From Malacoraja senta (Eukaryota): a stretch of 64,000 nt of DNA. The translations under genes and the position numbers were made by a program. The notes beneath the pieces were generated by a model that did not search any database, was not told the origin of the DNA, and saw only the letters and a list, made by a program, of their open reading frames with translations. This document shows, in pieces, positions 25,132 through 63,366 of the stretch. Positions within the stretch are counted from its first letter, which is position 1. Each line of letters opens with the position of its first letter. The stretch lies in contig CM075994.1 in assembly GCA_038087875.1 (NCBI GenBank), positions 6,884,001 to 6,948,000 on the forward strand, read 5' to 3'.

Positions 25132-25218
25132 TTAAACGAGCTGAGGATTTTCAGGTTCAGCTGCAGGTTCAGAATGTTCTAGTCCCATGATTTGCAATTC
25201 TTGCCCTTCTCCATTACC
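25132..25218 (-). CDS. Gene B terminal coding exon (GNGEGQELQIMGLEHSEPAAEPENPQLV*)
   Basis: Acceptor ttttgtttattttag in phase 0, matching the preceding exon. TAA at 25132-25134. Candidate ATTAAA signal at 24342-24347. Confidence 0.65.
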   Translation of the reverse strand, partial: GNGEGQELQIMGLEHSEPAAEPENPQLV

Positions 25219-25663
25219 CTAAAATAAACAAAATGAACACAAAGCATTTGTTGAAACGTGAGGACAAATCTTCATAGTCAAACAATGAAGATATGGATGA
25301 GAAGGAGAGGGAGAGTGGTGGATGGAGGTGGCAAACCAGACACAACAAATAATGCAAATGGAGAAGACCAGGCACAATCTGCAGAACCAGATATGGATCT
25401 GGAGAGTTTGTGAATGTCCACAATTTACATGGGGATGTGTCCAGACAAGAAAATAGAAAAACAGTACGGGAGGGGGTAGATGATGTTAAATCTAACCACA
25501 CATCATGCATATTAGTAGAGATCAAGATTTCCTTTGGGCTGAGTGTGTCAATGTCTGACAGATAGGCATTATAGACACACAGGAAGTTTTCAATGAGTGT
25601 ATACATGTAAAAGAGCAAGAGAGAGGGCAAGGTAAACAATCATTTTGTACCCCCAAAAAATAC

Positions 25664-25710
25664 CTGTTCTCTTTCAGTGTTGTTGGCTCTGTGAGTTCCA
25701 TTATTTCTGC
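25664..25710 (-). CDS. Gene B cytoplasmic exon (SRNNGTHRANNTEREQ)
   Basis: Acceptor ttttattcattttag, donor CAG|gtattt. 47 nt, phase 1 to 0, bridging both neighbouring exons in frame. Confidence 0.65.
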
Positions 25711-26612
25711 CTAAAATGAATAAAATAATTCTTCATCAACTCCGCATGCATGATACACAATATTGTCAGAGATTGTGTGTAGGAAGGAACTGCAGATGCT
25801 GGTTTAAACCATAGACACAAAAAGCTGGAGTAACTCAGCAGGGCAGGCAGCATCTCTGGAGGAAAGGAATACATTACTTTTCGGGTCGAGACCAGAGTCT
25901 GAAGAAGGGTTTTGACACGAAACGTCACCGATTCCTTTTCTCCAGAGATGCTGCCTGTCCTGCTGAGTTACTCCAACTTTTGTGTCTATTGTCAGAGATT
26001 GTTTGTGCCTCATCTCCCGTCTCAAAGAAGTATTATTTTGATTCTGCTTTGTTCTTTTATTTTAACCTTTCAATGGGTCTCTGTCCCTATTCGTCTTCAG
26101 TGAGGTGGGCCCTTGTGTCGTTGGGACACAGGTGGCTGTTACTGTCTACAGAGCCATGGATCGGGAACGTAATGAGTTGTATGACCCAAGCTAGGAGTCA
26201 GGAACAGGGGTAGTCCGAGAGCCAGGAGCCGGGAAAATGGTTATGTTTGGTCAGGTTTGTGCCAGTTCCAGAGAAACTGGAATGTGGTTAAGTATACATC
26301 TGGAGTAATGGTGTAACATGGTGATGTTGGTGGACAAGAATACACCCCACCCACAAACCCTCTCAGATATCTGACATCGAAATCAATGCTGATTCCAATA
26401 TTTTTAACAATGAAAATTGAGATTATTTTTAAATAAACGAAATTATTTAAAACTATATGTTTAAGAAGGAACTGCAGATGCTGGAAAATCAAAGGTAGAC
26501 AAAAATGCTGGAGAAACTCAGCAGGTGAGGCAGCATCTATGGAGCGAAGGAAATAGGCAACATTTCTGGTTGAAATCCTTCTTCAAAATATATATTTTTA
26601 AAACAATACTTT

Positions 26613-26925
26613 GGGCGGCACGGTGGAGCAGTGGTAGAGCTGCTACCTGACAGCGCCAGAGACCCGGGTTCGATCCTGACTACGGGTGCTGTCCATACAA
26701 AGTTTGTATGTTCTCCCCATGACCACGTGGGTTTTCTCTGGGAGCTCCGGTTTCCTCCCACACTCCAAAGACGTGCAGGTTTGTAGGTTAATTGACTTCT
26801 GTAAATTGTAGATTGTCTCTAATGTGTGTAGGATAGTGTTAATATGCAAGGATCGCTGGTCGGCGCCGGTCGAAGGGCTGAAGGGCCTGTTTCCACGCTG
26901 TACCTCCAAACTAAAACAAACCAAA
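26613..26925 (+). mobile_element. Near full-length tRNA-derived V-SINE (HE1-like)
   Basis: GGGCGGCACGGTGGAGCAGTGG head, GGTTCGATCC box B, central domain and CR1-like tail. Confidence 0.85.
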
Positions 26926-27658
26926 CAATTCAAAGCTGCAGCTCTTCCCAGTCCCCCTTTCCCAATGAATGGGCTCAGGAATCCTGCATGCGGTTAGACC
27001 TGGCACTGGATCCAGGGGTGGTTCCTCAGCTGGGGAATCTCAGGGGGTCTCTGCTCCATCATTGGCCAGCAGGTTCTGGGCTTCTGCATTCCTGCGAGTG
27101 TCCCAATAATACCGGCACTGGCAGCTCTGTACGGAACTTCCTGCTGAACACGGAAATATCCATGCCAGAGGGTTGCTCTTGAATGCCAGCAACCAGTCAG
27201 GGACAGAATGGACAAATTTGTTGGAGTCACAAAACATGGAACCAAACCAAAGATAGACACAAAATGCTGGAGTTACTCAGTGGGACTGGCAGCATCTCTG
27301 GAGAGAAAGAATGGGTGATGTTTCGGGTCGAGACCCTTCTTCAGACTGAGAGTCAGGGGAAGGGTAAACTCTACCTCGCCATCTATATATCTCTTTTCCC
27401 TTCTCACCACCCCCCCCACCCCCCGACTCTCAGTGAAGAAGGGACTCGACCCGAAATGTCACCGATTCCATTTCTTCCGACACGCTTAGTGGCCAATTTA
27501 ATGTTTGATAAAATTGTAACATTACCACCCTGCTCTTGCATTCTGGAGATTTGCTCACAATTGCGTCCTTTCAGAAACTAAAATTTCACCAGGATTGGGG
27601 GAAACTTTTCACTGAAACTGAATCCTTCAGAAACTGCTTTGATGAACTTGATACTTAC

Positions 27659-27757
27659 TGTGGCCAACTGGAAGTGCCATGGATAATGTTAACAGACATC
27701 CCAGCATTAGCGGAACAAGCAGTATCCAGGTAGGATAGTTGCTGTCACAACGTTCAC
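27659..27757 (-). CDS. Gene B TM exon (GERCDSNYPTWILLVPLMLGCLLTLSMALPVGH)
   Basis: Acceptor ttgttgtgtattatag, donor gtaagt. 99 nt, phase 1-1, open and hydrophobic. Confidence 0.75.
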
Positions 27758-29311
27758 CTATAATACACAACAACGAACTCACTGAGAGAATTACACTGAG
27801 TGTTCACACAGTCTCACTTTTTAACAGTACATTTAATACGGCAAAACATACAATGCAGAACAGTATTGTTAACATATGATGAGTGTTTGACGGCACTGGG
27901 CCTCGACTCACTAAAGTTTAGAAGGATGAGGGGGAACGTCATAGAAACTTACCGAATAGTGAAAAGCCTGGATAGAATGGATTTGGAGAGGATGTTTCCA
28001 TGAGTGGGAGAGTCTAGGACCAGAGGTCATAGCCTCAGAATTAAAGGATGTTCCTTTCGGAAGATGAGGAGGAATTTCTTTTGCCAGAGGGTGGTGAATC
28101 TGTGGAATTCTTTGCCACAGAAGGCTGTCGAGGCCAAGTCAACGGATATTTTTAGGGCAGAGATAGATAGATTCTTAAATAGTACGGGTGTCAGGGGTTA
28201 TGGGGAGAAGGCAGGAGAATGGGGTTAGGAGGGAGAGATAGATCAGCCATGATTGAATGGCAGAGTAGACGATGGGCTGAATGGCCTAATTCTACTCTAC
28301 CTTACTGATTATTCTACCCTACTGGTTATGGTTATGGTGTTGGAAGGAACCAAAGTTCTTGGAGAAAACCCACGTGGTCAGCGGTTATCAGGCAGCTAAA
28401 TCATTCTAGCACAACCAGAGAGCAGTCCTGAACTACTATCTACCTCATTGGTGTCCCTCGGACTACCCTTGATCAGACTTTGCTGGCTTTACCTTGCACT
28501 ATACGTTATTCCCTTATCATGTATCTATACACGGTAAATGGCTTGATTGTAATCATGTATTGTGATTCCGCTGATAGCAGCAACAAAATCTTTTCACTGT
28601 ACCTCGGTACACGTGACAATAAACTAAACTAAAACGAAACATTTAAAAAATACTCAGTTCTCTCATATTTTGGTCCAAGGCAATTGACATAATATTTGAT
28701 GCGAAAAAAACCATTTCAGTCTTGACAACTTGCATCACCTTTTCATCTCTCTTTAGGATGTAATTGCAGTTCACCCTGTTACTATACCACCCACCTTTGC
28801 ACTGTAGGTGAATTTGATGAAGTGACTCTATCTAATCACTCAAGTTGGCCTACGAGAAGCTACAGCCCCAATATAGATATTTGAAGAAGGGTCTCGACCC
28901 GAAACGTCACCCATTACTTCTTTCCAGCAATGCAGCCTGTCCCGCTGAGTTACTCCAGCTTTTTGTGTCTACCATAGATCTTTGTAGGACACCATTAATC
29001 AGTCTGACGACTTGTATCTTGCAAGTTATTCCTATATGCTGCTTCCTGTCATGGAAGCACCAATAATCCATTATCATAACCTTCCATTTCATAAGTTTTA
29101 ACTTACAAAGGACTTTATCTAATACCCTCTAGAAGTCCAGATGTCCAACTAGTCATCCATTATTGACTATATTGGGTCTCACAATGCAGGTGCAGGTAAT
29201 TCAGGCAACATAGATTACAATGTACTGACTGAGATACTCCATTCATTCCAACCATCTGATACAGTACCAAGTTTCCAATTTCATGAAAATAAAGAAAATG
29301 TGTGCACATAC

Positions 29312-29404
29312 CTTTAAATGCAATCCAGCAAATGGAAGCAATGAGGATGGTAACAAGAGACACAATGTGGCAGATATTCAGGCGCCACCACCACCATTTG
29401 TCCT
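29312..29404 (-). CDS. Gene B TM exon, type A copy 3 (EDKWWWWRLNICHIVSLVTILIASICWIAFK)
   Basis: Acceptor tttctctccaccgactccag, donor AG|gtatgt. 93 nt, phase 1-1. Flanks are homologous to those of the 54934 and 63274 exons. Confidence 0.8.
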
Positions 29405-29554
29405 CTGGAGTCGGTGGAGAGAAATGAACAAAATTAAAATAGTTTGAAAAAACGAAATAGTAGATTGACACAAATGATTCAATGCATGCAATAACAAACA
29501 AAGTTTGGAGACACAAGACACCATGAGCCTGAAAGTCGAGCAAAATTGTGAAGT

Positions 29555-30860
29555 TCTGGCGACATCCTTGTAATTCTTCCCTGCACCCTTTCCAGTTTGG
29601 CAACATCTTTCTGATGACATGTTGCCCAGAACTAAACACACAATACTCTAAACACAGCCTCACCAACGTCTTATATAACTGCACATGACCTCCCAACTGC
29701 TATATTCGATACTCTGATTGATGAAGGCCAATGTGCCAAAAGCCTTTTTGGCTACCCTAGCTACCTGTGACCCCACTTTCAAGGAACCATGCACCTGCAC
29801 TCCTAGATCCCTCTGCTCCACAACACTCCTCAGAGCCCTACCATTCACTGTGTCGGTCGCTGCCCATGTTAATCTTCCCAAAATGCAACGCCTCACATTT
29901 CTCTGTATTACATTTCATCAACCATTCCTCAGCCCACCTGCTCAATAGATCAAGATCCTGCTGCAATTTTTGACAACCATGTTCACTGTCTGCAATACTA
30001 CCCACTTTTGTGTCATCTGCAAACTTGCTAATCTTGCCATGTCATTGATACAGACGACAAACAGTAACGGGCCCAGCGCTGAACCTTGAGGCACGCTATT
30101 AGTCACAGGCCTCCAGTCCATGAAGCAATCTTGCACCAATCACTCTCTGCTTCCTTCCATGAAGCCACTTTTGTATACATTTAGCCATCTCTCCTTGCAT
30201 CCCATGTGACCTTCCAGAGCAGCCAACTATGTTGAACCTTATCGAATGCCTTGCTGAAATCCAGATGTACAACATCTGCAACTCTGCCCTCATCAACCTT
30301 TATGGTCACATCTTCAAAAAACAATCAGATTTGTGAGATTAGACCTCCCACGTACAAAACCATGCTGTCCCTAATCGGTATTTGTCAGTCTAAATGCATG
30401 TATATGTTATCCCTCAGAAAACCCTCTACTAGCTTTCCGACCACAGATGTCAGGCTCACTGGCCTGCAGTTCCCAAGCTTTTCCCTGCAGCCCTTCATGA
30501 ATAGAAGCACATTTGCCACCCTCCAGTCTTCCGGCACTTCACTGGCATTTAATGACAACTCATAAATCTCACCCTCGGCTCCTGCAATTTCCTCTCTAGT
30601 TTCCCAGTGTCCTCGGGTATATCTGATCAGGCCCGGGAGATTTGTCTACCTTCCTACTCGTCAGGACTTTCAGCACCTCTTCGGCCGTAATATTGACTGC
30701 GCTCAAGACACTTCCATCGGCTGCCCCAAGTTCCCCAGTCCCACTGACTTTCTCCCTGGTAAAACCAGAGGAGAAATACTTGCTGAGGACCTTGCCCATC
30801 TCCTGTGGCTCCACACAGAGTTGACCACTTTGATTCCTGAGAGGCCACATTCTCTCATGT
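29555..30860 (-). mobile_element. Degenerate CR1 ORF2 fragment
   Basis: Frameshifted segments DKSPGPDQIYPR, VPQGSALGPLLF and LYKTLVR. Confidence 0.8.
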
Positions 30861-31084
30861 GGTACTGCCTCAAAAAGGCAGGTACCATCATCAAAGACCT
30901 ACACGATACTGGCCATGGTCTCACGTCACTCCGACCATCAGGAACAATGGAAAACTGTGACCATATGGTTCAAGAATAACTCTTCAAATCAACCATCAGG
31001 CTCTTGAACATGACACAGCACTAACCAATGAACTATGGACTGTCGTGGGTTGCACTAATGACTTCAGCATTTTTTTTCCACTAG

Positions 31085-32750: not shown

Positions 32751-33956
32751 TATTAGAGTTAATAATTTATTGAAATTTTAGTTTATTATGTATTTTCTAT
32801 GTCCATGATGTTACAGGCTTATTATGCTGCTGCATGCAAGAATTTCATTGTTGGTATATATATGACAATTAAACATTCTTGACTCGAGTCATCTGTGCCA
32901 TTACCTGTGACTCGGTAACAAATTTTATGTTATAATTTAGTCTCGACCCAAAATGTCACCCATTCCTTCTATCCAGAGATGCTGCCTGTTCCGCTGAGTT
33001 ACTTCAGCATTTTGTGTCTAACCTGTTATGCAGCGTGGGTCACTTTATTATACAAATGATGGTAGTTGTAACTATTGCCACTATTCTTGAACAACAAACT
33101 GTCTTTGGGAAAGGTGCTATTGAAGGGAAATAAAACTGGAATAATTTGAGCGGAATTGTCACCATCCCCAAACACTGGCCAGTAGTTAAGGAAGAACTTT
33201 GATGCAGCACAGTGGCGCTGCGATAGAGTTGCTGCCTTACAGAGCCAGAGTCCTGGGTTCGTTCCTGACGACGGGTGCTTGTTTTTTCGGAGTTTGTAAG
33301 TTCTCCCCGTGACTTGCTTGGGTTTTCTCTGAGGACTTCAGTTTCTTCCCACATTTCAAAGATGTACAGGTTTGTAGGTAAATTGGCATGGTATCAATGT
33401 AAAAATTGTCCCCAGTGTAGGATAGTGTTAATGTGTGGGGATCGCAGGTGGGTACAGACCTAGTGGGCCGAAGGGGCTATTTCCCCGCCATATCTCTAAA
33501 CTAAACTAAACTGAATACTTCCATGCATCCACAGTCAGGTGTGAGTGCGGACAGCCTGCACGTTCAGCCTTACGCTGTGGTGGAGTAGGGTGTGCAACCA
33601 GATCCAGGGCTTCCTACCCAACCAGATCGAGGGCTTCCTTGGCTCTAAATTGACTTCCACGATGCGTCAATCATGAATGAATTCAGAGGCTCTTCTCAAG
33701 GTCACTTGTCCACTAGTGACCTTGCTGGAGTCAGGCCAGAATACTTCCTGATGTTCTGTGTCATTCCGAGGCACCACAACTGGGCAAAATGTGGGGTCAT
33801 TGCATTCCACAAGTTACAGGAGCTGTTGGTGAGTTGGAGGGATAGGTGTCGGGAGGAGTTAATAGGTCATGTTTTGCTCTTTTGCTTTGCTAATGCTAAT
33901 CACTTGGAAATGCCTGCGAGTTAATGCTTAAGTGCAAATTAGACAATATCAGATAC

Positions 33957-34064
33957 CTGGGAACTCCTTAAATGTCCAGCAGAGAAACATAATGGCATAT
34001 GTTAGAGAAAGTACCAGTCCCACCATCGATGCAGCAGCAATTATAACGTCCTCTATTGTAAGGC
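33957..34064 (-). CDS. Gene B TM exon, type B copy 2 (GLTIEDVIIAAASMVGLVLSLTYAIMFLCWTFKEFP)
   Basis: Acceptor ttctctttaattgcag, donor AG|gtatct. 108 nt, phase 1-1. Same length as, and homologous flanks to, 60730-60837. Confidence 0.8.
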
Positions 34065-34189
34065 CTGCAATTAAAGAGAAGTTTGAATAACAAAATATGA
34101 ACCCAAATGAAGATCATTATAGTTACAGTTTAGTTTATTGTCATGTGTACTGAGGCACAGTGAAAAGCTTTCATTGCGTGCTATCCATC

Positions 34190-38745: not shown

Positions 38746-39582
38746 CATTTTAATCCCGCCCCCCCCCCCCCCCCCCCACCACACCACCAAAGCCTCCGGA
38801 ATAGCAAGCACAGTGCCACTGATGGTAGGGTTCGTAACAATGCCACTATGTCAAAAGTTTAATACACCCTGGTGGATCGGGCCGAGCCCCCCCCTAGATC
38901 TCGAGGCCATAAGCTTAAGCTTGTCTAGCTTTACGTAAATCCGGCCCTGTCTCCACATCGACTCTATCCAAGCCTTTCACTATTCGGTAAGTTTCAATGG
39001 TTGGAGAGGGTTTACTTGCCCTTTTGGAAATAATGGCATGAGATCTTTCACATCCTCCCGAAGAACACATGGAACACAGAGGGGGTTCTTGGGATACAGT
39101 CTTACCCAAAACCTGATATCTCTGCAAGTGGCACAAACACTTCCTCAGAACTGATTCTAGGATGCGTCTGAGACTGAGAGGGCTGCAATTATTCCATATC
39201 TATTTGCCCTGAGAAGATGATTTGTCATGTAAAAGATAGATCGGGTAGATGCACAGTCTCTTGCCCAGAGGAAATGAATTGAATGCCAGAGGGCATAGAC
39301 ATAGACATAGAAAATAGGTGCAGGAGGAGGCCATTCGGCCCTTCGAGCCAGCACCGCCATTCATTGTGATCATGGCTGATCGTCCCCAATCAATAACCCG
39401 TGCCAGCCTTCTCCCCATATCCCATGACACCACTAGCCCCTAGAGCTCTATCTAACTCTCTCTTAAATACATCCAGTGATATGGCAGGGAATTCCATAAA
39501 TTCACAACTCTCTGGGAGAAAAAGTTTTTTCTCACCTCAGTCTTAAATGACCTCCCTTTTATTCTAACACTGTGGCCCCTGG

Positions 39583-41355
39583 CGAATTGATCATGGGGAA
39601 CAAGGACATGGCAGACCAATTGAATAACTACTTTGGTTCTGTCTTCCCTAAGGAAGACATAAATAATCTGCCGGAAATAGCAGGGGACTGGGGGTCAAAT
39701 GAGATGGAGGAACTGAGTGAAATCCCGGTTAGCCAGGAAGTGGTGTTATGTAAATTGAATGGATTAAAGGCCGATAAATCCCCAGGGCCAGACAGGCTAC
39801 ATCCCAGAGTACTTAAGGAAGTAGCCCCAGAAATAGTGGATGCATTAGTGATAATTTTTCAGAACTCTTTAGATTCTGGAGTAGTTCCTGAGGATTGGAG
39901 GGTAGCTAATGTAACCTCACTTTTTAAAAAGGGAGGGAGGGAGAAAACGGGGAATTACAGACCAGTTAGTCTAACATCGGTAGTGGGGAAAATGCTAGAG
40001 TCAGTTATTAAAGATGGGATAGCAGCACATTTGGAAAGTGGTGAAATCATTGGACAAAGTCAGCATGGATTTATGAAAGGTAAATCATGTCTGACGAATC
40101 TTCTAGAATTTTTTGAGGATGTAACTAGTAGAGTGGATAAGGGAGAACCAGTGGATGTGTTATATCTGGACTTTCAGAAGGCTTTCGACAAGGTCCCACA
40201 TAAGAGATTAGTATGCAAACTTAAAGCACACGGTATTGGGGGTTCAGTATTGATGTGGATAGAGAACTGGCTGGCAGACAGGAAGCAAAGAGTAGGAGTA
40301 AATGGGTCCTTTTCAGAATGGCAGGCAGTGGCTAGTGGGGCAAGGCTCAGTGCTGGGACCCCAGCTATTTACAATATATATTAATGATCTGGATGAGGGA
40401 ATTGAATGCAACATCTCCAAGTTTGCGGATGACACGAAGCTGGGGGGCAGTGTTAGCTGTGAGGAGGATGCTAGGAGGCTGCAAGGTGACTTGGATTGGC
40501 TGGGTGAGTGGGCAAATGCATGGCAGATGCAGTATAATGTGGATAAGTGTGAGGTTATCCACTTTGGTGGCAAAAACAGGAAAGTAGACTATTATCTGAA
40601 TGGTGGCCAATTAGGAAAAGGGGAGATGCAACAAGATCTGGGTGTCATGGTACACCAGTCATTGAAAGTAGGCATGCAGGTGCAGCAGGCAGTGAAGAAA
40701 GCGAATGGTATGTTAGCATTCATAGCAAAAGGATTTGAGTATAAGAGCAGGGAGGTTCTACTGCAGTTGTACAGGGTCTTGGTGAGGCCACACCTGAAGT
40801 ATTGCGTAGTTTTGGTCACCAAATCTGAGGAAAGACATTCTTGCCATAGAGGGAGTACAGAGAAGGTCCACCAGACTGATTCCTGGGATGGCAGGACTTT
40901 CATAAGAAGACTGGATAGACTTGGCTTGTACTCGCTAGAATTTAGAAGATTGAGGGAGGATCTTATAGAAACTTACAAGATTCTTAAGGGGTTGAACAGG
41001 CTAGATGCAGGAAGATTGTTCCTGATGTTGGGGAAGTCCAGAGCAAGGTGTCACAGTTTAAGGATAAGGGGGAAGTCTTTTAGGACCGAGATGAGAAAAT
41101 CATTTTTCACACAGAGAGTGGTGAATCTGTGGAATTCTCTGCCACAGAAGGTAGTTGAGGCCAGTTCATTTGCTATATTTAAGAGGGAGTTAGATGTGGC
41201 CCTTGTGGCTAAAGGGATCAGGGGGTATGGAGAGAAGGCAGGTACAGGATACTGAGTTGGATGATCATCCATGATCATATTGAATGGCGGTGCAGGCTCG
41301 AAGGGCCGAATGGCCTACTCCTGCACCTATTTTCTATGTTTCTATGTTTCTATGT
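39583..41355 (+). mobile_element. Relatively young 5'-truncated CR1 (RT domain nearly intact)
   Basis: ORFs 39572..40384 and 40302..41255 with NYRPVSLTS, DFQKAFDKVPH and KFADDTKL, few frameshifts, and a (TTTCTATG)n tail. Abuts an inverted CR1 3' end at about 39295-39582. Confidence 0.9.
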
Positions 41356-43433: not shown

Positions 43434-46387
43434 TTTTACTTCAGAGTCACGTGAGTGACTACGTGAAGACCCCGCCAGCACGCATGCGTGTCATATCGTC
43501 TATCGCATTGTGTACGACTGGCGGGGGGGCATGATGCTCCTGCCAGCTGTCAGACCTGAAGGTAAGTTTTTTAAACTTTTTCCAGGTTATGTCTTCTTGC
43601 AGGAACCTCTACTTAGAGGTCCTGCTAAAGTCAGGGGCGAAGTCCGGATGGAAGGGAGAGCCCCAGTCACGGACTACAGGGAATCCCGGTCACGACCTCG
43701 GGGAATCCCGCCCATGGACCAAGGGAACCCGCTTGGAAGACCGCGGAATGCGGGTAGCGGGCGGCGGGGAATTCGCCTTTCGAGCCGCTGGCGGTGGAGC
43801 CAGCGGCTTCATACTTGTGCCGGTGGCACCTGGACAAACACAGCGGGGATACCCCCCGACTATGTGTATCGCGGCTATCCCTTTTATAGGGACCGCGGGG
43901 ATATCCCAGCTGCAGTTACTGCGGGGGCGGAAGCCCCGACTGTAAACATCGCAGAGAAGCCCTTCTATAAGGGACCGCGGTGGAAATGCCGGCTATAGCT
44001 ACAATGGGAATACCAAGCTCGGGGGAGAAAAACCCGATAATGAACGTCGCGGAGAAGCCCTTCTACAAGGACCGCGAGGGAATCCCGGCTGCAACGACTA
44101 CGGGAATATCAAGCTCGGGGGAGAAAAACCCGACTATGAATATCGCGGGGAATCCTTCTACAGGGACCACGAGACCAAGCTCGGGGGGGGGGGGGGGGGG
44201 GGAGCGTTGCCCCTGCAGCGGAAGGTTGAAAACAGGACCTGCAGGTAAATTCTTTACTCTAAGGTCGTTTTGTTCTATTTTCTGTCAGAATTGTGTTACA
44301 GGAAAGGAACCATGGACTAAGTCCAAATGGACCACATCCAGACTGACTGCGGAGGACCACAGAAGTGCGGGCAATCAGCAGCGGTCGGCTGCACCTGGAT
44401 CGCTATTCGATCAGCAGTCTCCGACCTGGCACCTGCACAGTCCGAATCGACACCACAGACTGGCGGGAAGGCCAAGCAGAAGTCGGACAGGCCCGAAGGC
44501 TCAGACGAGTCGGGCTGTGAACACTCACCGTCGGCGGGCAGCGACTGTGATCGCATATCCCGCATGGAGCGGTTGATGGAGCAGATGCTCCAACGTGACA
44601 TGGAGTCTAGTCACCATGGGGTCCTAGGACGCCCATGGCAGCACCTTATAGAGGCTGCATAATGCATCTCCCTCGACAGAGGGGAGCATTAGGAGTCACT
44701 TCTGGGCTGACTCTGAAGACAGGGGTTTGGCTGAAGATACCACAAGTGTGCTGGGGGTGCAGGAACAACACAACCAGCAGCAGGAGCAGGCTGTGAATGA
44801 CAACTACCAAATACCCAGCACCAGGGAACTGTGTTTCTCTCAGTGTCCCTGCGGTGAACAGCTATCTGGGGACCCCAAATTTACAGGACTGTGTAAGACC
44901 AGTAACACACAACCACTGATACTGCCATTTGGGGGCAACCTTTTGAAACAGGTCAAGAAGCTCGACGAGGGCCGTCGGGCTCATGAAGGCCACATCATCA
45001 GGCAAGACCTCACATCTCCGGCGGCAGCACCCCTACGCACCCACCAGCAAACCACGATACACTGAAGTTGGTGAAAGCTTGAAGGCCGTACAACTAGGAC
45101 AAAGGTCTTTTTCAGGCCACGGCCCAGAACGGCCTTCCTGGAAGATGCGCCAACCCCGTACTCGAGCTCCTCTACCTCCCAGGAGCAGAAGGTGCAAAAA
45201 TCATGTTATCCCAAACCTGTGTAAATATTCATGCACACATGGTTGAGGCAGCTCTTGGGTCGGGTTGCATAAGTCCTCCCATTCGGATGTGGAAGGATGA
45301 AGCTGATTGAGGCAACTCCTGGAAGTTCCCCATCCGGCGGTGTGAAGGTATGGAGCCACATCGATGATGCCTCCTGTCACGGATACAAGTTGGTAATATT
45401 TACACTGGTTTGAATATTTACACAGGTTTGGGATAACATGAGATTAGTTTATACTGCACAGCAGGTATGGTTGGAGTTGCCTTTCAAGGCAGGCTCGCAA
45501 TTATGGGAGATGTGGACTGTTCATTGTCAACAGCTTCAACCCGCATGTGCAGTATAGACATTTCTGAATAACTTCCATGTGATCATTTCCGCTCACAGGC
45601 TTCGGAGATATTGGAAAATTAGCTGGATGAGGCAAGGATACACTCAGAAGCATTGCAAAATGGGCTAACTTCAGCTTCCAGGTTATTTACCAAATCACTA
45701 CAATCAGTGCTTCGACAGGGCTCGAAATTAGAGGTTGCCCGGGTGCCACTGACCACTCAAAGCGCCGCCGGGCAACCTAAACACCGATTCATTTTGCCCG
45801 GCTTGGCAACCAGATACTGGTTTGTACCGAAGATAGACACAAAAAACTGGAGTAACTCCGCGGGTCAGGCAGCATCTCTGGAGAAAAGGAACGCGATGTT
45901 TTGTGTCGACGGTGACGGCTGTATTGCGGCGCAAAGATACTGGGTGCAGGGTGAGGAAGGGTCGGAGCGAATGACGGGCTTCGCACAGCAGCAGCAGCGG
46001 CCGCGACAGCGGCTCCATTTCCTCCTCCTCCCGCCCCCTGCCCGCCCTGATAAGGGCGGGCAGGGTGCGGGAGGTAACTCCGAAGTAAAATAGTAAGATT
46101 AAACGAGAACTTACCAGTTTGAAGTTTGATCTTTATTTTATGAGGAGTAACGTTGAGGGATTACGTTCCCTCCACGCCCACCCTCTATCATAAAGGTCAA
46201 CTGGTATTCTAGTTTCTCTTATCTTACTATGTTTATTTCAATAACTGTTGTCTGTGATTTCACACCGCTGCTTTGAAGATTGACATGCATGCGTGCTGGA
46301 GGGGTCTTCACGTAATCCCTCAACGTTAATCCTCATAAAATAAAGATCAAACTTCAAACTGGTAGTTCTCGTTTAATCTTACTATTT
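43434..46387 (+). mobile_element. Internally deleted DIRS1-type tyrosine-recombinase retrotransposon
   Basis: Inverted terminal repeats at 43461-43493 and 46281-46313. An internal complementary region at 46074-46166 is complementary to both termini. RT remnant NGLTSASRLFTK at about 45655-45695. TTT termini and no TSD. Confidence 0.8.
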
Positions 46388-49900: not shown

Positions 49901-51900
49901 GTTCCGTTATTGGCATAATCTCACTTATATTCCAATTAATTCTATATCCTGAAAATAAACCAATTTGAGTTATAAGATTTAATAAGTTTGGGATGCTGAT
50001 TTCTGGATTTGTAATATATAATAATACATCTTCTGCATATAGAGAGATTTTATTATACCCATATATTTCTGGTTCCTGTCTGTCAGGAAGCTGGTGATCC
50101 ACCGACAGAGGGGTTCAGGCACAGTCTACTCGGAAAGTTTGTAGTGTAGTAGCTCTGGCACAATGGTGTTGAATGCATAGCTAAAATCAACAAACAGGAT
50201 CCTCGCATAGGTCCCCTGGCGGCCCAGGTGCTGCAGGATGAAGTGCAGGCCCAGGTTGACTGCATCATCCACAGATCTATTGGCCCAATATGCAAACTGC
50301 AGAGGGTCCAGCAGGGAGTTTGTGATATTTTTCAGCTTGGCGAGCACAAGCCTTTCGAGTGTTTTCATGACTACAGAGGTCAGTGCGACAGGCCTGTAGT
50401 CATTAAGACAAGTAATCCTTGCCTTTTTGGGTACACGAACAATAGTGGAGACTTTGAAGCAGGCAGGGACAGTACATGTTTGCAGGGACTGGTTAAAAAT
50501 GTCTGTATATACCGGTGCCAGCTGTTTGGCACAGAGCTTAAGAGTAGAGGGGGAAACATTGTCAGGTCATGGAGATTTCCAGCTTTTTTGTCCTCTGAAA
50601 AGCCTCTCCTCCTCCTCTATTTTTATTGTTGAAATTGGATGTTGTGCAGCACAGAGGGTGTGGGTGATTGGGTGTGAAGTGGTGATTGGAGGGAGGTGGG
50701 TGTAGAAGGGCCCAGTCTTTGCAGAATGAGGTTAGGCTGTGAGTGGGTATTAAGTGTTGGTTGGGGTGGTAAATGGTCCAGTCTTTTCAAACTGGAGTCT
50801 TGCCTTAAGTAGGTGTGAAGTGGTGAATGGGAAGGAGAGGGTGCAGGGTTCATTCTTTGTAGAATGGGGTCTGGCTGTGTTGGTCGGGGACGGGGGGGGG
50901 GAGGGGGTACCAGGGTTATGTTTCTGATTTTCAAACCTGCAGTAAAACTCATTCAGGTCATTGGTCAGCTGACGATTGTTCAAAGTGCGGGGGGCTTTCC
51001 TCTTGTAGCTGGTAATTTCTTGCAAGCCCTTCCAAACTGAAGAAGAGTCACTAGCTGAGAACTTGCTCCTCAACTTCTCAGAGTACCTTTCCTTGGCAGC
51101 TCTGATTCCTCTTCTCAGCTTGTACTTGGCCTGCCTGTAGAGGTCTGCATCCCCGCTCCAGTAGGCCTCCTCTTTAGACCGTCGGAGCTGTCTGAGTTCT
51201 GCAGTGAACCAGGGCTTGTTGTTGCTGAACCATGTCCGGGTCTTAGTTGGAATGCAACTGTCCTCGCAAAAGCCAACATATGATTATACAGTGTCCATAT
51301 ACTCATCGAGGCTTGTGGTTGCTTCACTGAACACATTCCAATCCGTGCAGTCAAAGCAGGATTGTAGGTTCTCAATGCTCTCGCTTGTACACCTTTTCGT
51401 TGTTCTGACCACAGGCTTAGCAGCTTTTAGCTTCTGCCTGTAGGTCGGAATAAGGTAAACTAGACAATGATCAGAGAGACCTAGACCCGCCCTGCGAACA
51501 GAGCGATATGCGTTCTTGATTGCCGTATAACAGTGATCGAGTGATCTCTCCCCTCTGGTGGGGCAGGTAACATGAAGTCTGTATTTTGGAAGGTCACGGC
51601 TGAGGTTAGCTTTGTTAAAGTACTCCAAAACAATGACCAAGGAGTCCGGGGAGTCACTCTCTACCCTCATTACCTGGTCAGCGAGTTGCATTTGCACCTC
51701 ACGTACGCAGGCTTGGGGGGGGAATGTAAACTCCAGCGAGAATAAATTCCCTCAGAGAATAGAAGGGTTTGCAGTTTATAAAGAGGGATTCTAGGTTGGG
51801 AGAGCAGAAGTTTGACAGTACCGTGATGTCGCTGCACCAGTCCTGGTTGGTATAGATGCATATTCCACCGCCTCTTGATTTCCCCGCTGCCTCCACATCG
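46980..51900 (-). mobile_element. Near full-length Rex1/Babar-like LINE (endonuclease plus RT), split by an L1 insertion
   Basis: [48 protein letters not shown] and LPSGRR. (CTTA)n tail at about 46980. Confidence 0.85.
48012..50072 (-). mobile_element. 5'-truncated L1-clade LINE inserted into the Rex1 element
   Basis: KISLYAEDVLLYI, FKYLGI, MLGRVNAINMIFLPQLLYLFQ and IWSPFIDYL. A-rich tail at about 48012-48030, with TTCCT repeated at both junctions. Confidence 0.85.
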
Positions 51901-51944
51901 TGATCTGCTTTTTATCCCGACTATGTATGCCATGTCGTGTCTAA

Positions 51945-52169: not shown

Positions 52170-52174
52170 TAACT

Positions 52175-54933: not shown

Positions 54934-55035
54934 CTGTTGACGCCATCCAGGAAGTGATTGCGATGACGTTGAAAATGAACAAAATGAACAAAATAACTTC
55001 AGCGATAGACAGCCATCGTCTGTATCTTGGATATG
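54934..55035 (-). CDS. Gene B TM exon, type A copy 2 (AYPRYRRWLSIAEVILFILFIFNVIAITSWMAST)
   Basis: Acceptor ttcttgttttcatttctctaaag, donor AG|gtatgt. 102 nt, phase 1-1. Confidence 0.8.
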
Positions 55036-56519: not shown

Positions 56520-57135
56520 ATAAGCATGCAGGTACAGCAGGCAGTGGAGAAAGCGAATGGCATGTTGGCCTTCATAACAAAAGGAGTTGAGTATAGGAGC
56601 AAAGAGGTCCTTCTGCAGTTGTACAGAGCCCTAGTGAGACCACACCTGGAGTATTGTGTGCAGTTTTGGTCTCCAAATTTGAGGAAGGACATTCTTGCTA
56701 TTGAGGGAGTGCAGCGTAGGTTCACACGGTTAATTCCTGGGATGGCAGGACTGTCATATGCTGAGAGAATGGAGCGGCTGGGCTTTTATACGCTGGAATT
56801 TAGAAGGATGAGAGGATATCTTATTGAAACATATAAGGTTATTAAGGGTTCGGACCCGCTAGAGGCAGGAAACATGTTCCTGATGTTGGGGGAGTCCAAA
56901 ACCAGGGGCCAAAGTTTAAGAATAAGGGGTAAGCCATTTAGAACGGAGATGAGGAAACACTGTTTCACACAGAGAGTTAAGGCGGCGGAGGCCGGTTCTC
57001 TGCATACTTTCAAGAGAGAGCTAGATAGGGCTCTTGAAGATATGGGGTGGACGGGGTAATGATTGTGGATGATCAGTTATGGCAGTTATGGTTTGAAGGG
57101 CCGAGTGGCCTACTCCTGCACCTATTGTCTATTGT
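56520..57135 (+). mobile_element. CR1 3' fragment
   Basis: ORF 56487..57059 with [19 protein letters not shown]. Confidence 0.85.
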
Positions 57136-58028
57136 CCATAACATTGGATGTGGCAGCTTATCAAATATACAATACATTCACTGCTTCCCCTTTATCCATA
57201 CTACATTATTTCTTCAAATGACATCAAGAAATTGGTCAAACACATTTCCCCTTTCTCAAAATCACGTTGTCTTTGCCTTTGACCTTGAATGTTTATAGAC
57301 ATTGTCGTAATATCGTTAATAATAGATTCTAACATCTTCCTCATTACAGACATTATGCCAATGGTTTGTTGTTTCGTGTTTTCTGACACCTGCCCTCTCA
57401 GAATAAAAATGTTACGTGCTATTTTTCAATCCAATGGAACCCTCCCTGAATTGCAAGAGTGTTTGAAAATGAAAAACAATATATCAGTTCTATGACTAAT
57501 CATTACTAAATCCCGAGGATAAAGTCTTTCTGGGCCCAGGGACTTGTCAGACCAGAGCTCCAACAATTTTCTCATTGGCTCTTCTCTGGCAATTGTAATT
57601 TTCCGGCCTGCACTGTAATGCTCAGATAACAACTCAATGCACACATTTGTGCATTCAGAATTACGTTATACTTACTTATGGGACATAGAACAGTACTGCA
57701 TAAGAACAGGCCCTTTGGCCCACCATGTCTGTGCCAAACATGTTGCCAAGACCAATTCTTAACTGCCTGCACATAATCCATATCCTGCCTTTCTCAGCAT
57801 ATCCATATGCCTATCCAAAAGTCTCTTAAATGCCACTGTCTTTACTACCTCAAGCAACCCCCCCCCTTCCCCTCCCCAGCAACAACAAATTCCAGGCATT
57901 CACCACCCTCTACGTCAAATTTTGCTGTTAACAATAACTGATTCAAATATCCAAGAGGGATGGCTACCAGGACAAAGAAATTCCCTCCCCATATTCATCT
58001 CTATCAGTAATGCAGGAAGCTCTATTAC

Positions 58029-59946
58029 CGTGTGCGGACGTGGCGCCGATGGACGAGAGGCGGAAGCAAAGATGTCAAAGCCAAAGAACGGAATGGAAAC
58101 GAGGCCAAAACGACAATAAACCGAAGGAGACCAAAGACGAGACGCCTACTAACCGAAAAGATGGGACGCCTAAATGCAAACTAACCGAACGGGCGGGACG
58201 CCTGAAACCCAAGGAACCGAAAAGCTGCGTCGCCTAAAAGCAAACTTACCGAATGGCCGCTCTGTCGAAACGCCACCTACCCGAAAGGCGGCGTCGCCTA
58301 CAGGCCAAAGGACCAACTGCCACTCAACAGAAAAGTCCAATAACGGGCTTGACATTGCCGGGGGGCGGGACTTGTCAGCGATTGGCCCAGACCACGTGTC
58401 CATCACATCACTGTGAAGGCGTGAACATTGTCCCAAACCTCCCCCGACTCGCAGCCCGCGGAGGGTGGCCGTGGGAGAGTGGGGGCTGTCCCGAGCGATG
58501 CACACCTTCGGCCGCATTCAACTTGGTGCTTGGGTTCAGATTGCCCAGTTATCTATGGCTTGTGTGGGAAAATGAACCCCACGCTCCCGTCTCCCCCTTC
58601 TCTCTCTCTCTCCTCTCTCTCCCCTCTTCTCTCTCTTCCCTCTTCTCTCTCTCCATTCTTCTCTCTCTATACTCTTCTCTCTCTCTCCTGCTCTCTCTTC
58701 CCCTCCTCCCCCTCTCTCTCCCTTCTCTCTCTCCACTTCTCTCTCTCCCTTCTCTCTCCCCCTCTTCTCACCCCTCTTCTCTCTCCTCCTTTCTCTTCAC
58801 TCTTCTCTATCTCCTCTTCTCTCATCGCCTCCTCTACCCCCTCTCTCTCTCCCTTCTCTCTCTCTCCCCATTCTCTCTCCCTCCTCTCTCTCCCCCTCCC
58901 TCTCTCTCCCTTCTCTCTCTCTCCTCCGTCTCCACCCGCGGGTGCGTCCCAGTCATTGACCGCGATGCACCGCCATCTGACCCCAACCTCCACACCAGCA
59001 TGATTTCCCCTCCCTCCCTCTGACCGCAGTCAGTGACTGCAGGACGCTCCCACAGGTGGAGACGGAGGAGAGAAAGAAGGGGGAGAGAAGGGGAGAGAGA
59101 GAAGGGAGAAAGATTGGAAGAGAGAGAGAAGAGAGAGAAGAGGGGTGAGAGAGGAGGAGAGAGAGAAGGGAGAGAGAGAAATGGGGAGAGAGAGAAGAGG
59201 GGATGGGGAGAGAGAGATAAGGGAGGGAGATAGAAGGGAGAGAGAGGGGGAGAGGAGGGAAAGAGAGGAGAAGAGAGAGAAGTGGAGAGAGAGGAGGCGA
59301 GAGAGAAGAGGGGGAGAGAAGGGAGAGAGAGAAGGGAGAGAGAGAGTGGGAGAGAGAGTGGGAGAGAGAGAAGAGGGGAGAGAGAAGGGGAGACGGGAGC
59401 ATGGGGTTCATTTTCCCACTCGCCATAGGTACCGGGGCAATCTGAACCCACGCACCAAGTTGAAAGCGGCCGAAGGTGTACAACCCCCACTCTCCCACGG
59501 CCACCCTCCGCGGGCTGTGGGTCGGGTGGAGTGGAGGTGTGGGACAATGTTCATGCCTTCACAGTGATGTGATGGACGCGGGGGTCTGGACCAATCGCTG
59601 ACGAGGCCCGCCCCCCGGCAACGTCAAGTCCGTTATTGGACTTTTCTGTTGAGCGGCAGTCGGTCCTTTGGCCTGTAGGCGACGCCGCCTTTCGGGTAGG
59701 TGGCGTTTCGACAGAGCGGCCATTCAGTAAGTTTGCTTTTAAGCGACGCAGCTTTTCGGTTCCTTGGGTTTCAGGCGTCCCGCCCTTTCGGTTAGTTTGC
59801 ATTTAGGCGTCCCATCTTTTTGGTTAGTAGCCGTTTCGTCTTCGGACTCTTTCGGTTTATTGGCGTTTTGACCTAGTTTCCATTCCGTTCTTTGGCTTCG
59901 ACTTCTTTGCTTCGGCTTCTTGTCTGTCGGCCCCACGTCCGGGTAC
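58029..59946. mobile_element. 1.9-kb foldback element with 9-bp TSD (Mutator-like, non-autonomous)
   Basis: The two roughly 900-bp arms are reverse complements, including a CT-rich versus GA-rich block. CTCTATTAC occurs at 58020-58028 and 59947-59955. Short ACCGAA/GACGCC subrepeats are present. Confidence 0.8.
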
Positions 59947-60357
59947 CTCTATTACATCCTCTCCTTCATCAGAATTCAGTTCAGCTTGGTTTATTGTCAC
60001 ATGTACCGAGGTACCGTGAAAAGCCTTTGTTGTGTGCTATCCAGTCAGCAAAGACAATATATGATTACTATCAAGCCATTTACAGTGAATAGATACATGA
60101 TAAGGTAATAACGTTTAGTGCAATGTAAAGCCAGTAATGCCCGATCAAGGATAGTCTGAGGTTCACCAACGAGGTAGATAGTAGTTCAGCACTGCTCTCT
60201 GGTTGTGAAAGGGTGATTCAGTTGCCTAATAACAGTTAGGAAGATACTGTCTCTGAATCTGGAGGTGTGCGTTTTCACACTTCTATACCTTTTGCCTGAT
60301 GGGAGAGGGGAGAAGAGGGAGTGGGCAAATGAGATGCATTGTTCTCTAATTTCTCAC

Positions 60358-60384
60358 CTCTATGCCAAATCACAGCACATTTGG
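60358..60384 (-). CDS. Gene B 27-nt microexon (AKCAVIWHR)
   Basis: Strong acceptor ttttttcatgtttcatatttcttcag, donor AG|gtgaga. Phase 1-1. Confidence 0.6.
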
Positions 60385-60729
60385 CTGAAGAAATATGAAA
60401 CATGAAAAAAAACCTCCCATTTCTCAAGGCTATTTTCCTAAAGACTCCTCGAGTCAGGTCAGCAGTGCCTCCACAATTGTTCCAGATATCCTGTACCACC
60501 TCACAACTGACCAAAAATGCACTGACACCATCCCATAGGTCACAGCAACATGGAAGGGTGGCTATGGATGGACTGATGTCCTCTGACTCTGTGAGGTGGA
60601 GGGATGGAGGTGTGTGGAGTGGTTAGGGAGTTCATTGGTCATGTTTTCCTCATTTTTTATTTTATTAAAGCTAATCATTTGGAGATGTCTGCTTATTTAT
60701 GCGCATGTAAATTAGACCAGAAAAGATAC

Positions 60730-60837
60730 CTGATAATCTTGTACAATTCTGCAGGAGGATCAATATGGCACATGCTGCAGGAAATGGCAGTCCTATAATA
60801 ATTGCAGCACCAATTATTGTGTTATCTGTTATAAGAC
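60730..60837 (-). CDS. Gene B TM exon, type B copy 1 (GLITDNTIIGAAIIIGLPFPAACAILILLQNCTRLS)
   Basis: Acceptor tatttttaattgcag, donor AG|gtatct. 108 nt, phase 1-1, paralogous to 33957-34064. Confidence 0.8.
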
Positions 60838-61348
60838 CTGCAATTAAAAATAGGTTTTAATAATTAAATCTGAAACCAAATCAGGATCATTAGCTGTCTC
60901 CCATTTAAAGGGCATTGTTTACCTAAACTGATACCCACAACACCCATCAATTGCTGTGAAAGGGTCTGCAGTGAATTGTCCCATTGAGTAACAGTGCTAT
61001 TTCACCACATCTTTCACCCCCGAAGCCCAGGAACAGGCCCCAACCAGAACAACCCATTCATCCTAGTAATTAGCTTAATGAACTGCTTTTCAACCCCCTC
61101 CAATGCTACCAAATACATCCTCCACTGAGGGGATTAAAATTGTGCATGTTACCTCAGGTTTGGCTCACCAACACCCTGTATAATTATAATAGATCCTTAT
61201 TTCTGAACGACAACTCCTTTGCAATAAAAGCCAAAATGTTTTAATAGATCCAAAGGGATTGACCTAATTTGTGCCAGAATTGAAATCTGTTTGCAAGCAT
61301 TTTTTTCTAATTGTACCATGTAGCATTATTATTTGCGACACAACTTAC

Positions 61349-61369
61349 CATTCACACTGTTTATATCAA
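61349..61369 (-). CDS. Gene B candidate 21-nt microexon (VDINSVN)
   Basis: Consensus donor G|gtaagt and a weak acceptor (aaagatag). Phase 1-1 preserves the frame. Confidence 0.4.
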
Positions 61370-61499
61370 CTATCTTTGTGTTACGGAAATTATAGTTACA
61401 GACTTTTTAAATTCAGATTACTTGAATCAATTTGGCAAAATATTCGAGCAGAAATTCAATTTCCTGAAGGATACCGTCAAATCACGTCAACTTATCCTA

Positions 61500-62500
61500 T
61501 GATATCCGAAGGAGTTAGTGGTGGACTTTAGGAGGAGAGGAACACCCCTGGCCCCATCAATGGTGTGGAGGTGCAGTTTACCAGGGAGTACAAGTACCTT
61601 GCAGTTCACCTCGACAGTAAACTGAACTGGTCCAGGAATGCTGAGGCACCGTACAAGAAGGGACAGAGAACATCTGTACTTTCTGAGAAGGCTCCGCTCT
61701 CTCAATGTCCGTAGTAAGATGCTGCAGATGTTCTACCAATCAGTGGTGGCTAGTGCCATCTTCTTTGCTCTTGTGTCCTGGCATAGCAGGGCAACAGAAT
61801 TCACAAGCTCATTTGGAAGGCTGACTCTGTCCTGGGGCGGTGTTGGATACATGGGAGGTGGGCTTGGAGGGGAGGATGCTCCACAAACTGCGGAGCTTCC
61901 TGGACAATAACAGCTCATCCCCTCCATGGCACACCTGTGGAGCACCTTCAGCAACAGACTGGTTCCACCAAAATGCAGCACAGAATGCCACAGGTGATTC
62001 TTTTTCTGTTGTGGTCATCAAACTGTACAACTACTCCCCTTCTCCCCCTTCTGTCGTGGGGTAGACTGACTCCTCTTGTTGTTCTGGCACTATTCCATTA
62101 GATTATCAATCTCCCTCCTAAACGCCGATTTATCACTCTTCATAATTTGTCCAACAACTGTGGTGTCATTGGCGAGTTTAAAGATGACGTTGGAACTGTG
62201 TGTGGATACACAGTCATGGGTATAGAGTGAGCAGATCAGGGAACTGAGTCTACAACCTTGAGGTGATCCTGTGCTGATGGTTATCAAGGCGGAAGAGCCA
62301 ATTTCAGCTGATTGTGGTCTGTTGATGAGGAGGTTGAGGATCCAATTGCAAAGGGATGTACAGATATGCAATTCCCTGAGCTTGATAATGTTGAGAGTGG
62401 ATAATGATGCTGAATGCTGATCTGTAGTTGATGAATGGCCTGACGTACACATTCTTATTGTCCAAGTGGTCTAATGCAGGGTGGAGAGCCAGTGCCATCC
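61500..62500. mobile_element. Two Rex1/Babar-like LINE fragments (61500-62070 plus; 62090-62500 minus)
   Basis: HLYFLRRLRSLNVRSKMLQMFYQ on plus; [24 protein letters not shown] on minus. Confidence 0.75.
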
Positions 62501-63273
62501 CATCCCCTCTGGCAGTAGGTAAATTGTAGCGGGACCAGACTCTTCCTAAGTTTGATATGTGCCACAACCAACCATATGTTAAACACAAATTAATTGAGAC
62601 ATCCTCCTCTGAAAGCCACTTCTCCAAAAGTCCCTTTGGAGTTAGGTCAGACATGACTCCAGAATTGTTCCTGGAGTGATGCATCACTGCGGAGCATCCA
62701 CTTTGCAATTTGACACAAATGTAGGGCAATTTCATCCCACAGTAGAGTCATACAGCATGGAAACAGGCCCTTAGATCTAACTCATTCATGCCGCCCAAGA
62801 TACAAGTCCCATTGGACTGTGCTTAGCTCATATCCCTCTAAACCTTTCCTATCCTTGTACCTGTCCAAACAACTTAGAAATATTGTTATTGAATCTGCCT
62901 CAACTACCACTTCTGGCAGCTCGTTCTAGAAAACCTTCCATCCTGTGTGAAAAAGTTGCCCCTCGGGTTCCTGTTAAATCTTTCCCCTCTCAATTTAAAC
63001 ATATGCCCTAGAGCTCTGTTTGGAGTTTGTTCCTAAATATACAGTAGACAATAACAGAAGTAATGCACAAGTCGACCAAGAACACAGGGTAATAACACCA
63101 GCCATTAAAGTTTAAACATCCTTTAGGTTTCCCTGCTGTATGTTGTGGGCTATTGTTCAAAGAACTGTGGGTGCTGGCGATCCGGGTGAAGCTCACAATA
63201 CTCTGACTGACATACACCACTCCAGTCACCCTTCATCATTTTCATATGTTCAGAATAATATTTGTACACATAC

Positions 63274-63366
63274 CAAAACTGACGAAATAGATAACCGTGC
63301 AGAAAATCCACATGCACACAACCATATCACCAAAGATTAGCAGGATCTTCAAAAGGATTTTCATTC
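63274..63366 (-). CDS. Gene B TM exon, type A copy 1 (MKILLKILLIFGDMVVCMWIFCTVIYFVSF)
   Basis: Acceptor tttttgcttttctggaacatttcaag, donor G|gtatgt. 93 nt, phase 1-1. The flank AAAATTAAAATAGTTTGAAA is shared with the 29312-29404 exon. Confidence 0.75.

Follow-up and report, generated by a model that had tools for sequence, protein, structure and literature searches.

A skate gene with a modular multi-pass membrane base and its apparently undescribed family of immunoglobulin proteins in cartilaginous fishes

The sequence discussed here is a 64,000-nucleotide (nt) stretch of the Malacoraja senta genome (assembly GCA_038087875.1, contig CM075994.1, positions 6,884,001 to 6,948,000, forward strand), referred to throughout as the window. 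Its minus strand carries the 3' portion of a gene that is real, conserved, and spliced in related skates and that encodes a multi-pass membrane protein. The relatives of this gene make up what is apparently an undescribed cartilaginous-fish family of immunoglobulin (Ig) proteins with a modular multi-pass base, and the gene is a clear case of a membrane protein that has grown by the duplication of one-helix, same-phase exons, the intron flanks of which can still be recognised. Because the flanks are recognisable and each duplicated exon carries one helix, both the order of the duplications and the effect of helix number can be tested. If the reading set out below is true, vertebrates have a separate Ig multi-pass family with a likely matching tether, which would be a natural comparison for CD47 and for the question of why such a protein has many helices. 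The finding has its bounds: databases already contain the gene itself, as a partial and uncharacterized model, its function is only proposed, and any Ig part of this copy would lie outside the window.

Exon model of the gene

A preliminary description of the window had proposed ten short minus-strand segments that splice into a single frame. All ten are present with the lengths, AG/GT ends, and compatible phases claimed for them, and joined together they encode 260 amino acids and one terminal stop. Segments 1 to 8 have phase 1-1, followed by 1-0 for exon 9 and 0 for exon 10, and the introns of the ten-segment model range from 345 to 20,869 nt. A hydropathy scan shows six hydrophobic segments, one for each long exon, which bears out the proposal of one helix per phase-1 exon and at least six helices. 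As an exon set, the proposal stands in part. Of the eight exons kept, six each encode a helix and seven (exons 3 and 5-10) match orthologue proteins; the other two segments, micro-exons 2 and 4, are skipped in contigs from related skates. The corrected model leaves out these unsupported micro-exons and joins exon 1 directly to exon 3 and exon 3 directly to exon 5, giving 8 exons, 244 amino acids, and six helices (Table 1, which keeps the original exon numbers).

A scan of the window for open, hydrophobic exon shapes of phase 1-1 found nine, all of them on the minus strand; six of these are the helix exons of this gene. The scan is a weak control because its thresholds were chosen after the exons had been seen. 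A family profile run against the six frames of the window brought up neither another convincing helix exon nor an Ig exon of the family, and it missed exon 1 too. Near the 3' end of the gene there are two poly(A)-type motifs, AATAAA at 23848 and ATTAAA at 24347.

Table 1. Features of the window, with positions counted from its first nucleotide
Feature	Position	Strand	Length and phase	Remarks
Exon 1	63274..63366	-	93 nt, phase 1-1	Helix of putative type B, predicted inside to outside; real-looking acceptor; first exon in the window
Exon 3	60730..60837	-	108 nt	Helix type A, predicted outside to inside
Exon 5	54934..55035	-	102 nt	Type B helix, basic inner start
Exon 6	33957..34064	-	108 nt	Type A helix; belongs to the conserved terminal A-B-C module
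Exon 7	29312..29404	-	93 nt	Type B helix, Trp-rich start
Exon 8	27659..27757	-	99 nt	Conserved cysteine in the last outer loop, followed by closing helix C
Exon 9	25664..25710	-	47 nt, phase 1-0	Start of predicted cytoplasmic tail
Exon 10, coding part	25132..25218	-	87 nt	Acidic tail and stop
3' untranslated region	24300..25131	-		Minimum extent
Proposed micro-exon 2	61349..61369	-	21 nt	Unsupported
Proposed micro-exon 4	60358..60384	-	27 nt	Unsupported, although splice signals are good
Duplicated segment	60591..60892 and 33829-34119	-		Exons 3 and 6 with intron flanks
V-set exon, neighbouring gene	14094-13702	-	393 nt, phase 1-1	Open; V-set E 3e-10
Candidate membrane exon of the downstream IgV gene	10381-10283	-		Modest hydropathy only

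Orthologues and presumed transcript contigs

The gene had been called hidden, but two skate orthologues are already annotated, although both are partial and uncharacterized. Exon 3 alone matched the uncharacterized Amblyraja radiata model XP_032903637.1 (LOC116990198). This model in turn matched the 195-residue product of a 1,012-nt public contig, a product that is clustered with Leucoraja erinacea XP_055521474.1 (LOC129715637). The contig encodes exons 5 to 10 end to end, while the same exons span 30 kilobases (kb) in the window, and it is therefore either a spliced complementary DNA or a retrocopy. Both models follow the exon order of the window. Identity to the Amblyraja model is 27/33 in exon 3, 23/33 in exon 5, 32/35 in exon 6, 28/30 in exon 7, 26/32 in exon 8, 12/15 in exon 9, and 27/28 in exon 10, or 70-96% per exon across exons 3 and 5-10. 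The Amblyraja and Leucoraja models (225 and 200 amino acids) start inside exon 3, without exon 1, and neither has a function or a family name attached to it.

Splicing was also followed in contigs from public sequencing runs. Of 18 runs, 13 were guessed to be RNA, and four were placed on the window (X1, X2, X3, and X13). The contig runs are from related skates, not demonstrably from Malacoraja senta, and a contig could derive from a close paralogue. Contigs in all four runs partly cover the last exon and the 3' untranslated region (UTR) at ~94-96% identity, two of them extending past 24300. Those of X13, X2, and X3 end at 25217, the exon 10 acceptor, and that of X1 ends at 25220. At the other end of the gene, contigs extend beyond exon 1 by at least ~249 nt in X13 and ~127 nt in X2, in agreement with the earlier suggestion that the 5' end lies further upstream.

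A first placement of the contigs, swamped by repeats, gave no exon joint among the 15 joints listed. The loose ends of contigs at exon 3 are more informative. Exon 3 is covered in three of the four runs, with no cover in X1, and its upstream loose end is readable in two of those three; both fit the end of exon 1 and not exon 2. In X13, 23/30 letters agree with the end of exon 1, which is the best place in the window (the next best scores 19). The X2 contig fits exon 1 at 12/16 letters vs 6/16 for exon 2, which is weak alone, as another place scores 13. The downstream loose end, readable in X13 only, fits exon 5 and not exon 4, with 23/25 letters equal to the start of exon 5 and 16 at the next best place. 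The readable loose ends, in contigs from runs guessed to be RNA, fit joints from exon 1 to 3 and from exon 3 to 5, and none of them fits a joint through exon 2 or 4.

The proposal that the 21-nt and 27-nt segments are exons thus finds no support, a related-skate contig joining exons 1, 3, and 5 directly. Exon 4 is covered by no run, a 27-nt piece being possibly too short to place. An unspliced X3 contig that runs across exon 2 departs from the window at the final base of the exon and at donor position +4, and the pyrimidine tract of exon 2 (0.47) is the weakest among the ten segments. Open AG..GT segments of micro-exon size are common, and the 5.7 kb that separate exons 3 and 5 contain 29 of them. 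Because the runs come from related skates, the two micro-exons are best called unsupported and not excluded. In three orthologue records from Amblyraja and Leucoraja (P0001-P0003), exons 3 and 5 are connected by a different, 14-residue linker (residues ~34-47 of P0001) that is absent from the X13 contig. This linker was not found in the window, the interval 60729-55036 included.

An Ig plus multi-pass family

A phmmer search of 1.84 billion cluster-representative proteins returned 11 matches, made up of 8 cartilaginous-fish or orthologue records, 1 read-through fragment, and 2 apparent chance matches. P0010 (a bacterial repeat protein) and P0013 were set aside as chance matches, and so were P0011, P0017, and P0018 because exon 3 is read into its intron in them. 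With cluster members included, there are 13 family records from two skates, three rays, and the white shark, all of them 'uncharacterized' where they are named. Ig domains are present in 6 of the 13, which represent five genes: XP_072115151.1 (Mobula), XP_072888916.1 (Hemitrygon), XP_059826769.1 (Hypanus), XP_032903469.1 (an Amblyraja paralogue), and XP_041069466.1 (Carcharodon). The suggestion of an Ig plus multi-pass architecture therefore holds at the level of the family.

The complete Ig-bearing records are laid out in the same way, with a hydrophobic, signal-like start, 1-3 V domains that lack the canonical cysteines, and one C2/I-set domain. The membrane part of the family is made up of repeated A-B helix pairs and a closing helix C, followed by a tail without tyrosine. 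In the present gene, the V and C2 domains shown by these relatives would have their place outside the window, and the numbers of V domains and helices vary among the relatives. The Ig domains match the V-set, I-set, and Ig_3 profiles, the 2B4 V profile is above its cut-off in 3 of 11 aligned members, and for the Hemitrygon protein, CEA, CEACAM1, and CEACAM6 are among the PDB sequence matches that extend over both V and C2. Hydrophobic segments number 5-12 in the Ig-bearing records (5 in the white shark, 6-7 in Mobula, 11 in Hemitrygon, and 10 plus an N-terminal one in the skate paralogue), which corresponds to about 5 to 11 helices. In the ray and skate Ig-bearing records, the terminal A-B-C module is 48-51% identical to the orthologue over ~100 columns, and these records have a last-loop cysteine and an acidic tail in common with the window gene. 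The white shark record XP_041069466.1 is more distant (23% in the same alignment, E 5e-5) and has the last-loop cysteine in common.

One record departs from this layout. In Hypanus XP_059826769.1 (P0005), residues ~385-672 form three V domains between the fifth and sixth helices. On the inferred topology these domains would be cytoplasmic, and it is more likely that annotation has joined two tandem genes or alternative exons.

The literature listings searched contain no description of the family and do not name six of its LOC ids, although supplementary expression tables could list these loci. With the orthologue as query, the Atlas had no neighbour that passed the threshold, and a profile search with alignment A4, which covered only proteins of 922-2630 amino acids and so says little about range, found none. 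The one clear Atlas neighbour of the C2-plus-helix part is a 110-member chordate cluster (427 amino acids) with V-set and I-set domains, at a score of 0.90 and with 202/256 features vs at most 140 for the others listed. Through this cluster the family may reach beyond sharks and rays, although it is a lead only.

Helix exons and their duplication

The helices encoded in the window follow the order B-A-B-A-B-C, with type A in exons 3 and 6, type B in exons 1, 5, and 7, and the closing helix C in exon 8. Duplication is plainest for exons 3 and 6, the segments of which, intron flanks included, are 70.8% identical over 305 columns (E 9e-33; z 58.9). Exon 1 with its flanks resembles exon 7 (z 10.7) and exon 5 (z 4.7) at the DNA level, and the acceptor flanks are common to exons 1, 5, and 7 (z 10.7, 11.3, and 4.7). 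At the protein level exon 1 gave no match to homologues (z at most 0.8), and its putative assignment to type B is taken from the DNA flanks and its position. Exons 6 and 7 each match all 8 homologues compared (z 8.7-28.5 and z 8.9-21.8, respectively), and a further match (E 3e-5) links the terminal A-B pair to the helix pair that comes first behind C2 in the Amblyraja paralogue.

The variable helix number is accounted for by the shared phase of these exons, since the gain or loss of one of them leaves the reading frame intact. The models of the Mobula isoforms P0006/P0015, together with those of P0008 and P0009, differ by single helix exons. If splicing of single helix exons is real, it would flip the orientation of everything downstream, the tail included.

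Topology and the possible Ig exons of this copy

In all 6 Ig-bearing records, C2 is directly followed by Gly-(Phe/Leu/Ile)-Ser, which resembles the beginning of exons 3 and 6. Since C2 leads into a type A start and exon 1 is putatively of type B, a type A exon would be needed before exon 1. Should this copy have Ig exons, its protein would therefore have at least seven helices with the N-terminus outside. The loop charges agree in part with the positive-inside pattern that had been proposed for the gene: one inner loop is clearly basic (6 K/R, no D/E), and the other is not (3 K/R, 3 D/E). A low-confidence AlphaFold model of a Mobula record shows seven helices.

We think it somewhat more likely than not that this gene copy keeps its Ig exons, but a number of observations weigh against that reading and against the topology tied to it. 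There is no family Ig exon within the 64-kb window, both RefSeq orthologue models start inside exon 3 and lack Ig domains, and 7 of the 13 family records are also without them. The contig sequence upstream of exon 1 could be untranslated or intronic. The rule of an odd helix number is broken by some models, as a Mobula isoform has one additional helix exon and one Hemitrygon model lacks the last A exon, and one Hypanus model is without exon C. Models in which a single helix exon is gained or missing may be annotation errors or real variants. Two AlphaFold models of family members are of low confidence, with predicted template modelling (pTM) scores of 0.33 and 0.26.

In the main alternative, the copy has lost its Ig ectodomain, and its product has only 5 or 6 helices and begins at a Met in exon 1 or exon 3. 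It would then be an accessory or decoy subunit for an Ig-bearing paralogue, or would be decaying at its 5' end. We consider this alternative unlikely in both of its forms. It accounts well for the two orthologue models (225 and 200 amino acids), which begin in exon 3, for an in-frame Met at the second codon of exon 1, and for the fact that six helices with both ends inside require no signal peptide. However, RefSeq models of long-intron genes are often 5'-partial, the contigs extend upstream of exon 1, and the acceptor of exon 1 is copied from that of the internal exon 7 type. The last-loop cysteine is also kept in the window and in both orthologue models. A further point concerns the rate of change. 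When X13 is compared with the window, 19/134 positions differ in the 5' coding exons vs 49/928 in the last exon and UTR (p 0.0004), as might be seen in a decaying 5' end, but the same contrast in X3 is not significant (p 0.17). Faster 5' change equally fits diversifying selection or a paralogous contig, and for the X13 divergence selection, decay, and paralogy all fit. Retention of the Ig exons is the reading carried forward below.

Cysteines, tail, and a proposed mechanism

Two conserved cysteines suggest how the Ig domains could be held by the membrane part. An extra C2 cysteine is found just before the F strand in all five Ig-bearing genes (in the same place in 4 and a few residues earlier in 1), and in the Ig fold the turn before the C2 F strand faces the membrane. 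Of 12 family records checked, 11 have a cysteine in the last outer loop, and the remaining one is without that exon. In the part of the protein seen in the window, the predicted outer loops contain no cysteine other than this last-loop residue, encoded by exon 8. At the other end of the protein, none of 9 tails has a tyrosine in its last 55 residues, and direct signalling through an immunoreceptor tyrosine-based inhibitory, activation, or switch motif (ITIM, ITAM, or ITSM) is therefore unlikely.

The function that we favour, if only slightly, is that of a surface receptor for recognition or adhesion, with CD2/CEACAM-type V domains as its binding part and with signalling via partners held by its helix bundle. 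An immune role may be suggested by the type of domain, the expansion of paralogues, and analogy with known receptors. In such a mechanism, the exons upstream of the window would include at least one for a type A helix, one for C2, and others for V domains, bringing the protein to at least seven helices with its N-terminus outside and its C-terminus inside. The spare C2 cysteine would pair with the last-loop cysteine, a predicted CD47-like tether that would fix the angle of the ectodomain. The V domains would then bind a ligand on another cell or on a microbe, as the V domains of CD2, SLAM, and CEACAM proteins do. The helix bundle would act as a lateral organiser and not as a pore, with cysteines near the inner helix ends likely lipidated. 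With no tyrosine motif of its own, the receptor would pass its output to associated receptors in the same membrane.

Alternatively, the helix bundle could be a small transporter or channel with the Ig domains as a regulatory cap, which we regard as highly improbable. Three orthologue records do have weak Vut_1 matches (P0001 at E 3e-4 and 21.6 bits, below the 27.2 cut-off), and exon 6 alone weakly matches MtN3_slv (E 0.007, also below cut-off). The Vut_1 match is limited to 3 of 11 members, however, and such matches arise from any hydrophobic stretch. Moreover, the helix number ranges from ~5 to 11 among homologues, a variation that a fixed pore would tolerate poorly. A lateral organiser is the role we retain for the bundle.

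Neighbouring IgV gene and other features of the window

The neighbouring IgV gene had been taken as a hint that the 5' end of the multi-pass gene encodes Ig domains, but its V-set exon lies downstream, 11 kb past the stop of the multi-pass gene. Family V domains gave no match to this exon, the two having only the generic V-set motif in common. It lacks the usual B- and F-strand cysteines and has three other cysteines. Because it is downstream, is unmatched by the V domains of the family, and has a candidate membrane exon of its own, the IgV neighbour is best read as a separate gene and gives no evidence on the 5' end of the multi-pass gene.

Sequence that recurs within the window makes up at least 52% of it. 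Fragments of long interspersed nuclear element (LINE)-type reverse transcriptase (RVT_1) are found at 3569-4846 (minus strand), 39551-40381 (plus strand), and 50129-50566 (minus strand). Two G+C-rich stretches with long open frames, 43459-45243 and 58138-58300, have tandem repeats of 96 and 32/64 nt; two of the frames gave no Pfam match, and the stretches are probably mobile elements. Just past the 3' UTR, a 129-codon open frame at 23457-23843 (minus strand), also with no Pfam match, looks by eye only like a DNA-transposon remnant.

Comparison with known systems

The homologues have the ectodomain of the CD2/SLAM and CEACAM families, in which cysteine-free V domains at the N-terminus precede a C2 domain. 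The CD2/SLAM and CEACAM receptors differ in being held by one membrane helix or a glycosylphosphatidylinositol (GPI) anchor, whereas the window gene encodes six helices, and many of their members have tyrosine motifs, which the tails of the present family lack. A CEA-like expressed sequence tag has been reported from little skate, and the same source describes a transmembrane domain or GPI anchor (PMC4079198). Among multi-pass proteins, the family can be set against several groups. The preliminary description had recognised no G-protein-coupled receptor (GPCR), tetraspanin, or MS4A motifs, and none of the three has a profile that matches. No seven-transmembrane or GPS family is among the Pfam matches of the family records; the best PDB match is to one helix of CRF1R (E 0.07), and helix number is not fixed at seven. 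Tetraspanin and MS4A gave no Pfam match either, and the window gene has at least six helices vs four in those proteins. SKINT and butyrophilin-like proteins place IgV and IgC domains on three or more membrane helices and are found in expanded gene clusters, but their V domains are of the B7 type with a disulfide. In contrast, the V domains ahead of the first helix in the present family have no paired cysteines, and the B30.2 profile had no match in the Pfam scans of family records.

The closest comparison in outline is with CD47. In both CD47 and the present family, a multi-pass bundle carries an Ig ectodomain, the last outer loop has a cysteine, and the tail is short. According to Fenalti et al. 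2021 (PMC8410850), CD47 has one IgV domain, a fixed set of five helices, an RVVSWF linker before helix I, and a GLG motif on helix III. A disulfide between C15 and C245 joins its Ig domain to the last outer loop, and the loss of this bond reduces ligand binding and signalling. The same paper calls CD47 the only receptor of the immune system with five transmembrane helices and reports that no similar bundle was found (PMC8410850). The present family differs in having several cysteine-free V domains and a C2 domain, on ~5-11 helices that come from a duplicated pair. Its membrane-proximal domain is C2/I-set in all 6 Ig-bearing homologues, unlike the single disulfide-bonded IgV of CD47.

Sequence comparisons leave the likeness at the level of architecture, as had been proposed: the outline is similar and no sequence link to CD47 was found. 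Among the Pfam matches of 7 records, taken at E up to 5-10, there is no CD47 profile, and no CD47 chain is among 25 PDB matches (E up to 10) to the family profile A4, negatives that do not cover very remote kinship, as HMMER filters drop most matches above E 0.1. The RVVSWF linker was not seen at the C2-helix junction in any of 6 records, and alignment A3 has no conserved GLG. With the low-confidence model (pTM 0.33), Foldseek gave no match at E 0.001 or better, and VIA-align returned generic hairpins only, with Z at most 9.6.

It is improbable, in our view, that the family is a very distant CD47 paralogue whose bundle and predicted disulfide would be inherited and not convergent. The white shark record, with C2, five helices, and a cysteine before the last helix as in CD47, is what such a paralogue might look like, and CD47 too has about one helix per exon. 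Kinship of this kind sits poorly with the missing profile and chain matches and with the failure to see RVVSWF and GLG. In addition, the partner cysteine is in C2 near the F strand and not at the start of the V domain, and the V domains are without the canonical disulfide. The reading that we put forward instead, tentatively and at less than even odds, is that these genes may represent a second Ig-receptor lineage on a multi-pass base, separate from that of CD47, in which CD2/CEACAM-type V domains would be locked to the bundle by a disulfide of their own and the number of helices, ~5 to 11 or more, would be set by the copying and splicing of one-helix exons.

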